Positions 1,296 to 61,465 of a stretch of DNA of 64,000 nucleotides are shown piece after piece. Source of the stretch: Eledone cirrhosa. Taxonomy: Eukaryota. Position numbers and translations under genes: made by a program. Positions within the stretch are counted from its first letter, which is position 1, and each line of letters begins with the position of its first letter. The notes below the pieces were generated by a model. That model did not search any database. It saw only the letters and a program-made list of their open reading frames with translations, and was not told where the DNA came from. Where the stretch lies: the NCBI GenBank assembly GCA_964016885.1, contig OZ024742.1:365552001-365616000 (forward strand), written 5' to 3'.

Positions 1296-1373
1296 CCCAC
1301 TCTACTACTCTAAGTATTGAGTACTCTGGTGCGTTATGGTCCATCTGGTTCCTTACCACATTTCCTTTGTTAA
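1296..1373 (+). mobile_element. Family A 3' tail in (TA)n
   Basis: CCCACTCTACTACTCTAAGTATTGAGTACTCTGGTGCGTTATGGTCCATCTGGTTCCTTACCAC recurs near 33281, 47060, 52107 and 61311. Confidence 0.75.
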
Positions 1374-2529
1374 ATATATATATATATATATATATATATA
1401 TAAGAAAATGAGTTTTTTTTTAATGAAAATAAACGAGATGTCCTACACGAGTGAAACTATAAGGAAAAAAGATGAAATCGAAAATGCATCTGGAGTCTTT
1501 TCAAGAATATTTATTTGTTTCCTTTACCGGTTTCATAGTTCTCATGCTTTTCAAAAGTAGAGTTGAGAAGGAGGGTTTGTTAGGCTCTTAACTCCCCATG
1601 AAGTGGTAGGGGCACTCTTGGTGTATACTGGTACATGTTGTGTTTAGGTCATTTTCAATACAGTGAAGTCCATCCCGGGCTAATCCGATTTCTTTCAGAG
1701 AGACGTGCATTATATTAGTACAGCAAATCTACATGTTTCTTTATTAATGGTGGGTACGTACATATATTTGTAAACGTATCTACAAACATACTGGCCCTCG
1801 GTTTTCTTTAGTCCTCTCTCGATGAAGAGTGTCCCAGTTGTTTGAGCAATGGACTGTCCAGTTTGTGAAGTTAAAATGCAACGGGTTTTGCATTCACAGA
1901 CACTTGTATCCTGAATGTAATTTTCGAGTTGATTCAGTGTGGCAGTGTGTGTGACAACGTTGGGTCTTTCAGTTACAGATACGACTAATATTTACTGTCT
2001 GAGTGGACTGGAGAGATGTAAAGTACCATACAACGTACCACCGCCTAGAATCAAACTCTTGCCATTATAATCAAGAACCATATTCACTAACTACTTAGCC
2101 ACATACATACACTCATGCGTTGTAATAAATATATTTACTGCAATTTTATAACATCCATCACTGTGAACGTTAGAAAAGCAGACATCCGTGAAGAATACCC
2201 AAAATATCTGTTTTAATAACAGTTGCTACTCATATCTTTTTGAATATATAAAGAAAAGTAGAATTTAAATTGAGAATGGCAACAACAGGAAGTAGAATTC
2301 TTTAAAAACAGCCAAGCCATCATAAATTTAGAGAAAACAACCCCATCACCACCACCAAGGATTTTTAACTAAATTATTTGTTAAATATAATTTTCTATTT
2401 TAGATGTACTTGTAAAGGAAATGATTTGATCCAACATTGAAACTAAAACTCCTACTGCCTGCTACAGTGATTTTAGTCAAAAGACACAAAAACCGTGAAA
2501 TGCTTATAATATTTATTATGTAATTTCTC

Positions 2530-3007
2530 GTGTCAAAAGTTTAGACTTTCTAGAACCTGGTCACTAACAGAGGTTCAAGTCACGGGAGAGTGTTGACGGT
2601 GTCAAAAGTTTAGACTTTCTAGGACCTGGTCACTAACAGAGGTTCAAGTCACGGGAGAGTGTTGACGGTGTCAAAAGTTTAGACTTTCTAGAACCTGGCC
2701 ACTAACAGAGGTTCAAGTCACGGGAGAGTGTTGACGGTGTCAAAAGTTTAGACTTTCTAGAACCGGCCACTAACAGAGGTTCAAGTCACGGGAGAGTGTT
2801 GACGGTGTCAAAAGTTTAGACTTTCTAGAACCGGCCACTAACAGAGGTTCAAGTCACGGGAGAGTGTTGACGGTGTCAAAAGTTTAGACTTTCTAGAACC
2901 GGCCACTAACAGAGGTTCAAGTCACGGGAGAGTGTTGACGGTGTCAAAAGTTTAGACTTTCTAGAACCGGCCACTAACAGAGGTTCAAGTCACGGGAGAG
3001 TGTTGAC
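2530..3007. repeat. Minisatellite, 68-69 bp x7
   Basis: Unit GTGTCAAAAGTTTAGACTTTCTAGAAC...GAGAGTGTTGACG starts at 2530, 2599, 2668, 2737, 2805, 2873, 2941. Confidence 0.95.
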
Positions 3008-3093
3008 CATTTCATAACAAAATACCAAAAATATATTTAGGAAATTTAAACGATTTTTGTTGTGTTTTAAATGGCTCAAATAACACTTCCACA

Positions 3094-4020
3094 TTCTTCT
3101 TCTTCTTCTTCTTCTTCTTCTTCTTCTTCTTCTTCTTCTTCTTCTTCTTCTTCTTCTTCTTCTTCTTCTTCACGTGCGATGGTCGTGAGAAGACAGAGTC
3201 CTCAAACACACTTCCCAGCGAGTGGTGGTGATGGTGATGGTGGTTGTGGTGGTGATGGTGGTGGTGGTGGTGGTGATGGTGGTGGTGGTGATCGTGATGG
3301 TGGTGGTGGTGATGGTGATGGTGGGGGTGGGGTGGTGATGATGGTAATGGTGGTGTTGGTGGTGGTGATGGTGATGGTGATGGTGATTGTGGTGGTGGTG
3401 AGGGTGAGGGTGTGTTTGTGTTGGTGATGGTGGTGGTGGTATTGTTGGTGGTGGTGGAGTTGTGATGTAATATTTGATGTTGGGTTAGAGTGGTGACGTG
3501 CTGCTGCTGGTGGTGGTTGTGTTGGTGGTGATGGTGGTGGTTGTGTTGGTGGTGGTGGTGATGGTGGTGATGGTGGTGGTAGTGATGGTGATGATGGTGG
3601 TGGTGGTGATGGTGGTGATGGTGGTGATGGTGGTGGTGGTGATGTTGGTGATGGTGGTGGTCGTGATGGTGATGGTGGTGGTGGTGGTGATGGTGGTGAT
3701 GGTGGTGGTGGTGATGGTGATGGTGGTAATGGTGGTGATGGTGGTTGTGTTGGTGGTGGTGGTGATGATGGTGGTGGCGATGGTGGTGGTGGTTATGGTG
3801 ATGGTGGTGACGGTGGTGGTGGTGGTTGTAGTGGTGATGATGACGGTGGTAAAGTGGTGGTAGTGGTGGAAGTGGTGTTGGTGGTGGTGGTGTTGGTGAT
3901 GGTGGTGGTGATGGTGGTAGTGTTGGAGGGAGGTAGTGGTAGTGGTAGTGTTGGAGGTAGTGTGAGTAGTGATGGTTGTGAGTGTGACAGCTCTGGTGTT
4001 GCTGCTGTTGTTGTTGCAAT
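3094..4020. repeat. (TCT)n plus degenerate (GGT/GAT)n trinucleotide tract
   Basis: Direct reading; source of the poly-His/poly-Val ORFs. Confidence 0.95.
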
Positions 4021-59874: not shown

Positions 59875-60203
59875 ATATATATATATATATATATATATAT
59901 ATATATATATATATATATATATATATATATATATATATATATATATATATATATATATATATATATATATATATACAAATATATATATATATATATATAT
60001 ATATACACAAATATATATATATATATATATATATATATATATATATATATATATATATATATATATATATATATATATATATAATATAGTGCAAATTTAG
60101 ACGGGAACAAAATAGACAGGCAGACAAATAAAGTTTTATTAGGTTCACGCTCTTGAGAGAGTGTGTGTGTGGGGGGGGGGGGCGTTTCGGGCATAAGCCC
60201 TTA

Positions 60204-60842
60204 TCTATATATATAAAACTGTGGTTGTCTGTCTGTCTATCGATTTTTGGCACACATCTCCTCTTAGAATCTCTCACGGAATTGCACCCAAATTGCTATA
60301 CTTGTACATTGAGCCCTAGCGAAGACATCGGAAAAACAATATTTCAAATTGACCCACCCTATGTGACGAAATCGAATATAATGTATCGATTTTTGAGCGT
60401 AAGTTATCAGTTATTTCCCTTTGTTCTGTTTACATTGAGCGTCTGCGTGCAAAAATTAAAAAAATTACGCTGGCTTTCTCAGCGTTTAAAATGACATTAA
60501 CACAATACACGAACAGTTGTCGAGCCAGCAAAATTTTGACCTGCAAAATTCATCAGTTCGAACACTAAGCTTCCTTTTTGCTTCATTTCCATTTAAAAGC
60601 CTTTTAAAACAATATTTTTACTTGAAAACAAGTCTATTTAATGACTACGTAAAACAAGCAAATATTTCGTAAAAAAAAGCAAAATTTATATAAGTTTATT
60701 TAAAATATATGTATCTGTAAATTTCGTTAGGCGTGCAGACAGACAGTCGTGCAGACAGACTTTAAGCCAAAAAAGAAACTTAACATTGTAACTTTAACAC
60801 AGCTACTGAGCGACCCCGAGCAACGCCGGGCTTTACTGCTAG
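60204..60842 (+). mobile_element. Non-autonomous Helitron
   Basis: 5' A|TCTATATATATAAAA; 3' hairpin CCCGAGCAACGCCGGG then CTAG|T. Confidence 0.8.
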
Positions 60843-61310
60843 TTCAGGATAAAGAGGTTAGGAAGAGAGTTCCGAGGGTGTGTGGAAATATATATATATA
60901 TATATATTGTTATCTAACCTGATCGTATGTTCGTTGTGGTGGCTTCTGTGGATATGCCCCCTTAACCAGAGTTTTCAATCTGTCACACTATTTAACGTAT
61001 GTTTATTTCTCTAAGATGTAACTTATCGATTTATCGATATCTTCTTATTGAGTGCTTCGTGCAAAGCTCCGCATATTGTTTTTTTTTTTTTTTTTCGAGG
61101 AATGCTGGCCGATCGCTGCAATTTCGATTTTACTCACTTTCATTCCTCTCTCTCTCTCTATATATATATATTTATATATACATATATATATATATATATA
61201 TATATACATATATATATATATATATATATATATATATATATATATATATATTTTATATATACATATATATATATATATATATATATATATATATATATAT
61301 ATATATATAT

Positions 61311-61465
61311 AACGAAGGAAGTGTGGTAAGAAACCAGGTGGACCATAACGCACCGGAGTACTTTATACTATGGGTAGTAGAGTGGGTAACAGTAAAAGAG
61401 TCAGGACGCCGTCGGCTGAGCTCCGGCCGTTTCGACAGCTGTTTCGGCGTCCTGACTCTTTTCCT
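61311..61465 (-). mobile_element. Family A fold-back copy
   Basis: AAAAGAGTCAGGACGCCG...CGGCGTCCTGACTCTTTT plus reversed family A tail. Confidence 0.8.

Follow-up and report, generated by a model that had tools for sequence, protein, structure and literature searches.

Hammerhead ribozyme motifs in Penelope-like element ends and non-coding units at (TA)n tracts in the genome of Eledone cirrhosa

Hammerhead motifs in the window

A stretch of 64,000 nucleotides of the Eledone cirrhosa genome (assembly GCA_964016885.1, contig OZ024742.1, positions 365,552,001 to 365,616,000 of the forward strand; hereafter the window, with positions counted from its first letter) was analyzed for hammerhead ribozyme (HHR) motifs and for the Penelope-like elements (PLEs) and non-coding units that carry them. 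A structural descriptor, consisting of the core boxes (CUGANGA or its U3-A8 or C4 variant, GAAA, and NUH) and stems I to III, with stem I open and stem II of up to 130 nt, found 22 type I motifs at a score of 24 or higher and 25 at 20 or higher, whereas 40 local dinucleotide shuffles of the window gave none and at most one, respectively. A stricter descriptor without the core variants gave 20 motifs in the window and none in shuffled sequence. Two of the three matches with scores of 20-23 are doubtful: that at 48422 lies within a small foldback, and that at 51882 has a broken core. Besides the 22 complete motifs, approximately 20 half, degenerate, or atypical HHRs were recognized, at 7477, 23608, 18690, 20904, 30125, 4710, 5268, 32254, 47282, 48124, 21274, and 23191, together with six halves in family G. 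The preliminary description of this DNA, with about 35 motifs from roughly 20 families, was therefore a fair one: we count about 40 motifs in about 21 families, and the excess over shuffled sequence is clear.

Stem III was palindromic or near-palindromic in all 22 complete motifs, as scored by a descriptor that favours a palindromic stem III but lets hairpins through too. Of the palindromes previously proposed, CAATTG and CATATG were found only in half or degenerate copies. Stem II was often 30-85 nt long, with a mismatch at its base. An Rfam scan of the window gave 145 matches at E ≤ 1 and no hammerhead at the gathering score; the single hammerhead among the matches was HH9 at 48124 (21.6 bits against a cut-off of 52; E 0.89), and most of the others were miRNA models on TA runs and foldbacks. 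The Rfam models miss these HHRs because the long stem II and palindromic stem III do not fit them.

In a self-BLAST of the window, most inserts were inverted pairs with HHRs pointing outwards. The elements listed below cover approximately 41% of the window (26,074 bases; boundaries read by hand), and the four coding PLE remnants noticed earlier are indeed present, at about 18420-21065, 21082-23341, 35032-39095, and 57185-59874.

Genome-wide abundance and association with (TA)n

For a sample of the genome, 40 stretches of 10 kb each were taken from 12 large contigs at fixed positions (400 kb of a 3.0-Gb assembly). This sample contained 48 HHRs, in contrast to 0, 0, 1, and 0 in four shuffles, and bootstrap extrapolation gave 2.5-4.9 x 10^5 HHRs per genome. 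By this density, the window is approximately 3-fold denser than average and not special in kind. Copies of seven families were counted as exact genome matches to one motif per family, for which reversed controls gave 0 each: 32,073 for G (32-mer), 21,797 for A (26-mer), 8,378 for F, 4,787 for C, 2,228 for B, 1,620 for D, and 244 for N. A further 115 HHR copies outside eight known families fell into 48 clusters, and at least 13 different stem III palindromes were found in the sample.

Runs of (TA)≥5 make up 5.7% of the sampled genome. Among the sampled HHRs with enough flanking sequence, 25 of 35 lay 200 nt or less upstream of such a run, compared with 20.5% of random positions (p = 1.3e-10); in the window, the same was true for 18 of 20 motifs, compared with 26.9% of random window positions. 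The sample had 481 TA flanks, 197 of them from repeat families met elsewhere among the loci examined, and in 156 of these 197 another copy ended at TA in the same place (controls: 12 of 146 random repeat positions and 5 of 19 CA flanks). These results agree with the earlier suggestion that (TA)n is the landing site. TRF masked the TA runs, not the inserts. When flanks were joined in search of empty sites, five of 52 candidate insertions had matches, all anchored on element-internal TA. For a young insertion of family A (locus L025), no joint across the element was found in four read runs, and contigs broke at TA runs.

Insertion architecture and end rule

Complete insertions read (TA)n, inverted arm, forward arm(s), (TA)n in coding and non-coding families alike, an inverted and tailed architecture that the earlier account of the small inserts had missed. 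Their outer ends fall at two constant positions within the element, separated by 55-145 nt, and the tails measured 91 nt in A, 119 in B, 145 in C, 77 in D, 80 in G, 112 in H, about 101 in N, and 55 in E (one copy each in H; two long copies in N). A short end was paired with a long end in 46 of the 46 inverted insertions in which both ends could be classed (14 in A, seven in B, 10 in C, four in D, seven in G, and four in E), insertions with an unclassifiable end being excluded and uncounted. The layout of PLE insertions (partial tandem, inverted 5'-truncated arm, and tail at one end) was found here, and also at loci L126 and L127.

In family A, partner arms differed by 1.2% or less in 12 of 15 pairs (four further pairs had no aligned overlap), whereas the median other copy differed by 2.3-9.9%; C and B behaved likewise. 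The partner arms of A had 74 shared-private versus 23 discordant-common sites, 16 of these in one nested locus. This closeness, together with the shared rare variants, points to one source sequence. Foldback centres varied between copies, yet clustered: 12 of 52 A arms stopped at 110-113 nt, as did 15 of the 15 joints listed among 119 in read contigs. A second cluster of A stops at 335-337 nt was set aside, because an internal duplication may cause it. Varied but clustered centres fit repeated independent truncation better than a single master copy of a miniature inverted-repeat transposable element (MITE). Insertions also ran 40-290 nt beyond the HHR cleavage site, so that the template cannot be a linear RNA ending there.

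Two further observations were made on the joints. In four cases (57123-57185 in the window, L128, L130, and L132), the hairpin loop of a G arm formed a head-to-head joint with unrelated sequence, which in two of the head-to-head cases was a different Hydra PLE; template switching, priming from two RNAs, or deletion after hairpin breakage are possible origins. A (TC)n run stood exactly at the element end before TA in D (L184, L199, and L202), in G (L047, L146, and L160), and at 48722 of the window, and may have been seeded at the junction.

Families that are ends of coding PLEs

Judged from their sequences, the members of seven families derive from autonomous PLEs of the Hydra clade, of Neptune type, and of others, as ends that are folded back and truncated on the 5' side. 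Family A is represented by a foldback of truncated Hydra-clade ends (52222-52631) with HHRs at 52409 (minus strand) and 52534 (plus), stem III TGCGCA, and a 91-nt tail on the left arm; by a single arm with the 3' untranslated region (UTR) at 28534-29343 (minus; HHR 28632); and by a diverged A-like end, 76-80% identical to A, at 26413-26581 (plus; HHR 26486). PLE coding frames were found in six of the 10 long A pairs fetched. The parent at L116 has an open frame of 821 amino acids with RLRWTAYF, HSDKTNN, CNCRIKNKC, CNLC, and CLH, without CCHH, which agrees with the Hydra clade in its single open reading frame (ORF), reverse transcriptase (RT) followed by C-terminal GIY-YIG, and the motifs RW(T), DKT, CxCX5C, CxxC, and CxH. 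A protein search with this ORF gave 25 relatives at 31-42%, none usefully named, including one from Argonauta (37%).

Two broken Hydra-type PLEs lie in the window, with linkers of the same type. One, on the plus strand and head to head with a G arm (57123-57184, minus; together 57123-59874), has RT, a CxCX5C linker, and GIY-YIG, with CNCHLPERC, CRLC, and CNH; stem II of its HHR at 59572 is 85 nt long. The other (18420-21065, plus) has CNCVQPGMC and an inverted, tail-bearing arm, with degenerate HHRs at 20904 (plus) and 18690 (minus).

Family G consists of a 190-bp hairpin and a tail, and holds only the 3' half of the HHR. Its copies in the window are a mini-foldback (51992-52181), in which a Hydra PLE end is folded within HHR stem II, with two 3'-half HHRs and an 80-nt tail; a tail alone between TA runs (1296-1373, plus); diverged copies (33280-33446 and 46955-47138); and a copy at 61311-61464 (minus). 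A search for the parent with the canonical core gave five matches, chimeras or chance ones, and was rejected; Hydra parents with a U3-A8 core and a longer stem II were found at L162, L167, L169, and L173, 35-44% identical to the L116 ORF. Among 143 matches to the G tail-end pattern not followed by TA, five of the 25 fetched had a parent upstream, and several G subfamilies each matched a separate coding parent. G arms ended 4-26 nt upstream of GAAA, inside stem II, in 39 of 43 cases. The longest ones start at TTAGTC in stem II (L169, 1420-1450, and other G parents), which we take to resemble an initiator motif. Were transcription to begin at this point, the mRNA would carry an incomplete HHR at its 5' end, with the G copies as run-off products.

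Family E (35032-39095, minus; inverted arm 38286-39095) has HHRs at 35217 (minus) and 38947 (plus), stem III GTAC, and RT and GIY-YIG domains (Pfam RVT_1 and GIY-YIG). The window copy has stops upstream of an open stretch of 568 amino acids, and many open frames of 775 amino acids were found among 77 scored copies of 39,630 candidates. E has the motifs GxKF and DKG, a CX4CxxC linker (CNDNRCGTC), CCHH (CIKCPNC..H..H), and an upstream ORF in another frame, and is assigned as Neptune-type on these motifs alone, the linker being common to Neptune and Nematis. Near full-length E copies (L126, L127, and others) form head-to-head pairs with partial tandems and arms 98.5-100% identical, and carry an upstream frame of 476 amino acids overlapping the RT frame; E was likely active recently.

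Family F' represents 3' UTR ends of a GIY-YIG PLE, with a GIY-YIG frame upstream in five of 13 copies. In the insert at 4433-5351, HHR core boxes and stem II are present at 4710 (minus) and 5268 (plus), where stems I and III are not formed under the descriptor; another copy lies at 32018-32302 (minus; core at 32254). A 5'-truncated PLE with a CCHH-type GIY-YIG and an inverted arm (21082-23341) has minimal C4-variant HHRs at 23191 (plus) and 21274 (minus).

The small inserts had previously been regarded as non-autonomous as a rule. This is not the case for A and G, the two commonest of the seven families counted, whose longer copies extend upstream into the coding part of a Hydra PLE, nor for E and F', which likewise continue into PLE coding sequence, so that the non-autonomous share was overstated.

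Non-coding units

To judge from their repeat structure, B, D, F, and N are non-coding units, namely non-LTR retrozymes or non-autonomous PLEs; C, H, and I are probably also non-autonomous. Such units span 0.3-2.4 kb. Family B occurs as an inverted pair (11869-12954) with HHRs at 11995 (minus) and 12707 (plus), stem III CTAATTAG, a unit of 519-544 nt, a 119-nt tail, and an internal TA stretch, and as a second insertion (30054-30832) with an HHR at 30588 (plus) and a half HHR at 30125 (minus). Family D is a unit of about 1.3 kb with an inverted arm (26624-28169; HHRs 26822, minus, and 28042, plus; 77-nt tail), F is a foldback (5994-6730; HHRs 6239, minus, and 6431, plus; stem III CTAG; unit 420-430 nt) with a distal fragment at 61527-61703 (plus), and N is a monomer (56466-57068, minus; HHR 56819; stem III CCATGG; unit 656-675 nt).

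Tandem periods with one HHR each were found for B, F, N, and, at 1270-1360 nt, D. Measured units of 542, 424, 658, 1309, and 457 nt had a longest Met-started frame of 27-73 amino acids, and the B, F, N, and D units had a GC content of 33-38% and no PLE protein match inside. L248 contained five HHRs (a D pentamer) and L249 eight. No PLE coding sequence was found upstream in 45 B, 20 D, 12 F, and 32 C copies, and one of 30 N copies had a PLE protein match, 885 nt away. Families B, D, F, and N are scattered over hundreds to thousands of sites, in many cases as a monomer or dimer. Compared with shuffled sequence, the B, F, and H units were predicted to fold more stably (z -4.5 to -6.6), while N and D hardly differed (z -1.8). 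True non-coding tandem HHR units, as first proposed, exist. The possibility raised at the outset that all families are simple truncations of PLEs holds for A, G, E, and F', but not for B, D, F, and N, which repeat as non-coding units.

Family C is a foldback (29420-29891; HHRs 29667, minus, and 29789, plus; stem III TGATCA; 145-nt tail), for which one non-coding read-through copy of about 2.4 kb was found. Family H (24282-25186) has an inverted arm, a 112-nt tail, and a 457-nt tandem with HHRs at 24578 and 25035 (plus); it is one dimer, and no copy was found among the loci examined outside the window. Family I is present as a foldback (30885-31456; HHR 31287, plus, with a U3-A8 core) and as a unit (47955-48333, minus) whose U3-A8 HHR at 48124 is the sole Rfam match above; dimers occur at L097 and L112. 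B, F, and N are within the unit sizes of 51-972 bp published in a 2026 preprint (10.64898/2026.07.22.740005), and D (1.3 kb) and C (about 2.4 kb), being larger, would be better called non-autonomous PLEs than retrozymes. A separate retrozyme at L101 (8630-9990) has a 311-nt unit, stem III CGCG, at least four units, an inverted arm, and a tail related to that of family I.

Candidate CTCY..GAG motif at both ends

In read-through copies, the long end is followed after 6-12 nt by CTCC and, 7-13 nt later, by GAGC or GAGA. This was found in the coding families A and G and the non-coding families B, C, D, and H, i.e., in six of the six families with read-through sequence, while a looser pattern occurred at 0.86% of random positions. 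After the short end, CTCC, CTCT, or TTCT stands at a similar distance, followed by GAGT or GAGC, or by GAAC or GAAT where the 5' side is TTC. YTCY followed the short end in A, B, C, D, G, H, and most N copies, and B and H show a change from CTC:GAG to TTC:GAA. In a hold-out set of 17 clusters with short and longer copies, 12 were mapped and one was dropped as a (TC)n artefact; of the remaining 11, eight had YTCY (control 21%; p = 3e-4) and six had CTCY (control 9.4%; p = 2e-4). A multiple alignment of nine tails was uninformative (38% identity). The long-end copy of the motif falls outside terminal insertions, a position as would be expected for a protein-binding site 3' of the priming point. 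The helper and parasite relationship suggested initially is now backed by a motif common to coding and non-coding families.

Other elements and features of the window

Other HHR families are J (48433-48721, plus; HHR 48525), L (47444-47683, plus; HHR 47511), K (47160-47393, minus; degenerate HHR 47282), M (53486-53654, plus; HHR 53552 with a core mismatch), and R (7414-7530, plus; second copy 23538-23671, minus), which has a 3'-half HHR with CAATTG. Family Q, a TA-bound 550-nt tandem at 25421-26161 (plus), with a second copy at 32415-33163 that has an inverted arm, is laid out in full like a PLE insertion, TA flanks included, yet no hammerhead or other Rfam ribozyme was found in it. In family P, a TA-bound 250-nt element (17957-18207, plus; second copy 28226-28471), the descriptor scan found no HHR.

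The window also contains a Tc1/mariner remnant (46057-46960) with 115-bp inverted ends after a TA run and weak HTH_48 and HTH_32 matches. Inverted ends of approximately 60 bp (AGGTTCTCAAC...GTTGAGAACCT), seen by eye at 1-670, probably belong to a DNA transposon. An abundant family of 150-330 bp resembling short interspersed elements (SINEs) occurs at 9204-9460, 33559-33999, 34709-34925, 40033-40236, 41605-41809, and 49252-49725, and its copies also interrupt family D elements (L183 and L202). One SINE of the window is similar to those of octopuses. The (GAT)n-tailed end of another repeat was often found at or in the adjoining TA run (L044, L050, L051, L055, L159, and L163), and a further retroelement may use the same TA tracts from such ends. 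Minisatellites lie at 2530-3007 (68 bp), 13868-15377 (35 bp), 15641-16354 (30 bp), 42315-44029 (78 bp), and 50427-50852 (34 bp). On the minus strand, 559 codons of the 78-bp array can be read without a stop, which is probably a chance property of the repeat unit. A possible small exon, with a polypyrimidine-AG before and GT after it, was seen by eye at 16660-16790 (plus) and would put nearby elements in introns.

Proposed mechanism and alternatives

The HHR motifs belong to the terminal repeats of several PLE families and to non-coding tandem units, and we consider it likely that all of these were inserted into (TA)n by an RT/GIY-YIG protein of Hydra or Neptune type. By analogy with the Poseidon element of Anolis (PMC11167929), the PLE protein, probably as a dimer, would cut both strands of a (TA)n tract, and reverse transcription would start inside the RNA at two AU-rich points, to which the TA primer could anneal. 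Each point would likely be set by a CTCY..GAG hairpin that lies 6-12 nt closer to the 3' end. Both ends, from one source sequence, would then be joined head to head, and frequent early termination at a hairpin or short palindrome would yield the mass of 150-400-bp foldbacks. Non-coding units that keep both hairpins would depend on the protein in trans for their movement. With its palindromic stem III, the HHR is predicted to cleave in dimeric form only, as has precedent in PMC4209133: predicted stem III duplexes have -3 to -10 kcal/mol, and no monomer hairpin is predicted. Insertions continue past the cleavage site, so that RNA which is circular or still uncleaved would have served as the template. 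More tentatively, and at somewhat less than an even chance, two hairpins, one per subunit of the RT dimer, would force the short and long inverted pairs in (TA)n, retrozymes would keep this signal to use Hydra enzymes, and approximately 3 x 10^5 motifs would have been placed in this manner, with (TA)n perhaps bred as well.

It is highly unlikely that all of these inserts are dead PLE debris, in which tandem units arose once from a terminal repeat and spread by unequal crossover without an RNA step. A, G, E, and F' are truncations, as this requires, and a 2026 preprint discusses local tandem amplification, with cleavage in one of nine dimers (10.64898/2026.07.22.740005); on the other hand, the wide dispersal of B, D, F, and N as monomers and dimers, the near absence of coding sequence upstream of B, D, F, C, and N, and insertions each with its own TA-bound fixed ends, which in B and D follow the short/long rule, largely refute it. 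The short foldbacks (G, short A, and short C) look like MITEs with TA on both sides, and the 32,073 matches of G contrast with the rarity of its read-through parents, which would fit self-propagating families moved by hairpin transcripts or a TA-targeting DNA transposase. Because centres differ between copies, G subfamilies match separate coding parents, and the ends are asymmetric in 46 of 46 cases, unlike terminal inverted repeats and outside the definition of MITEs, we regard this as unlikely; re-mobilisation of G RNA by a PLE protein is possible.

A related question is where the TA tracts come from. The elements may make much (TA)n themselves, by target duplication or stuttered priming, and thereby their own landing sites. 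Several findings would fit this: one element is often nested in the TA flank of another; TA-bound families end at 156 or more of the 481 TA flanks; (TA)≥5 runs make up 5.7% of the sampled genome; a (TC)n run stands exactly at the short end in three of 20 D copies and three G copies; and PLE RTs are kin to telomerase (PMC8557442). We regard such an origin as rather unlikely, since insertion into a pre-existing tract also leaves flanking TA, later slippage can lengthen a tract, and (TA)n is treated as a preferred target in PMC8557442; the 52 empty-site candidates included none that was informative. The remaining alternative concerns the two arms, which may derive from two RNAs paired by the palindromic stem III as a kissing dimer, each primed on one target strand. 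The retention of palindromes in at least 13 sequences, their predicted duplexes, and the few G arms head to head with unrelated sequence (57123-57185, L128, L130, and L132) speak for it. The rare variants common to partner arms speak for a single source, with which two RNAs of one locus would also be compatible, and HHR mutants left insertion of the Anolis PLE in vitro unaffected (PMC11167929), so that we hold a kissing dimer to be improbable.

Several points weigh against insertion by a Hydra- or Neptune-type protein guided by the paired hairpins. The motif was found post hoc by end-anchored reading, it is missing from F, from two I-like units, and from E, whose long end is itself TA-like, and shared descent from a common terminal repeat alone could explain it. 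Five of the 17 hold-out clusters were unmapped, and the hold-out covered the loose YTCY half alone. Sequence comparison linked none of B, D, F, and N to an autonomous family; the similarity of arms can also arise by gene conversion; and the motifs of F' and at 18690 and 20904 do not form complete hammerheads. A rotifer study saw no cross-mobilisation between PLE types (PMC3846280), and the start site of the Anolis PLE was not homologous to the cut DNA (PMC11167929), whereas the ends here are AU-rich and resemble (TA)n. HHR activity and expression in this genome are predictions from sequence.

The formation of the inverted repeat and tail of PLEs and the enzymes that move animal retrozymes are stated as open questions (PMC8557442; PMC11167929; 10.64898/2026.07.22.740005). 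Both questions become testable by in vitro mutation in this genome, where Hydra and Neptune-type elements with open frames, mapped ends in the tens of thousands, and non-coding families with a candidate motif are all available. If true, the two-hairpin proposal would tie animal retrozymes to their helpers at the level of sequence and would explain how the PLE tail arises. Regarding annotation, Rfam misses the ribozymes, and short elements could be filed as MITEs or unknown repeats. The inverted arms, if transcribed, would give long double-stranded RNA.

Comparison with known systems

PLE hammerheads, (TA)n targeting, inverted arms, tails, and retrozymes have already been published, (TA)n targeting for Hydra, Neptune, and Naiad PLEs (PMC8557442). 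The elements described here are similar to the Hydra-clade PLEs of Craig et al. 2021 (PMC8557442) in GIY-YIG without CCHH, RW(K/T), DKT, CxCX5C, and HHRs, and also in (TA)n insertion, partial tandems, an inverted 5'-truncated copy, and a tail at one end. They differ in numbers and size: few families outside cnidarians and tails of 30-40 bp were reported there, in contrast to tens of thousands of ends per family and tails of 77-145 nt. The motif downstream of both ends is not described in the accessible part of that paper, the supplement of which lists Hydra families including molluscan ones and may hold relatives. Family E is similar to Neptune-type PLEs, for which a microsatellite bias is published, in its motifs and upstream ORF, and it lacks CTCY..GAG.

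The non-coding families are similar to metazoan non-LTR retrozymes (Cervera and de la Pena 2020, PMC7229834; Li et al. 2026, 10.64898/2026.07.22.740005), which are non-coding tandems with one type I HHR per unit, a GC content below 45%, dimers to multimers, and a proposed PLE origin; up to 126,247 HHRs are given for axolotl in this literature. In this genome the units measure 0.42-1.3 kb (about 2.4 kb in C) and, unlike published retrozymes, have the PLE signature of inverted arm, tail, and TA target; the words 'inverted' and 'microsatellite' are absent from the accessible part of PMC7229834. The HHRs are similar to the minimal HHRs of PLEs (Cervera and de la Pena 2014, PMC4209133) in a palindromic helix III, predicted dimers, and the U3-A8 variant. 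In that study, pairs of HHRs on opposite strands 100-700 bp apart were read as truncated PLEs, and activity was low. The HHRs here, known from sequence alone, differ in a stem II of 30-110 nt, often with a base mismatch.

Penelope expansions are described in cephalopods (PMC13282606 and PMC8967140), including recently active Penelope-like families in the repeat annotation of Octopus vulgaris (PMC13282606), the word ribozyme being absent from the accessible parts of both papers. Self-priming has been proposed for inverted junctions (PMC3846280). The literature search, which left aside Repbase, Dfam, closed journals, and supplements, gave no report of such a system, of its scale, of a strict rule for the ends, of the motif pair, or of retrozymes with PLE-type ends. 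The closest experimental system is the Anolis Poseidon PLE, PAc, in vitro (Frangieh et al. 2024, PMC11167929), in which both strands were cut and extended with uncleaved RNA as the template and two internal starts matched the tail, as is suggested here by the ends. PAc belongs to the Poseidon clade and has an AC-rich stem-loop and a non-homologous start, whereas the starts here are AU-rich and followed by a repeated hairpin motif. We conclude that the system is real, genome-wide, and largely of a known kind, its end rule and motif being possibly new.

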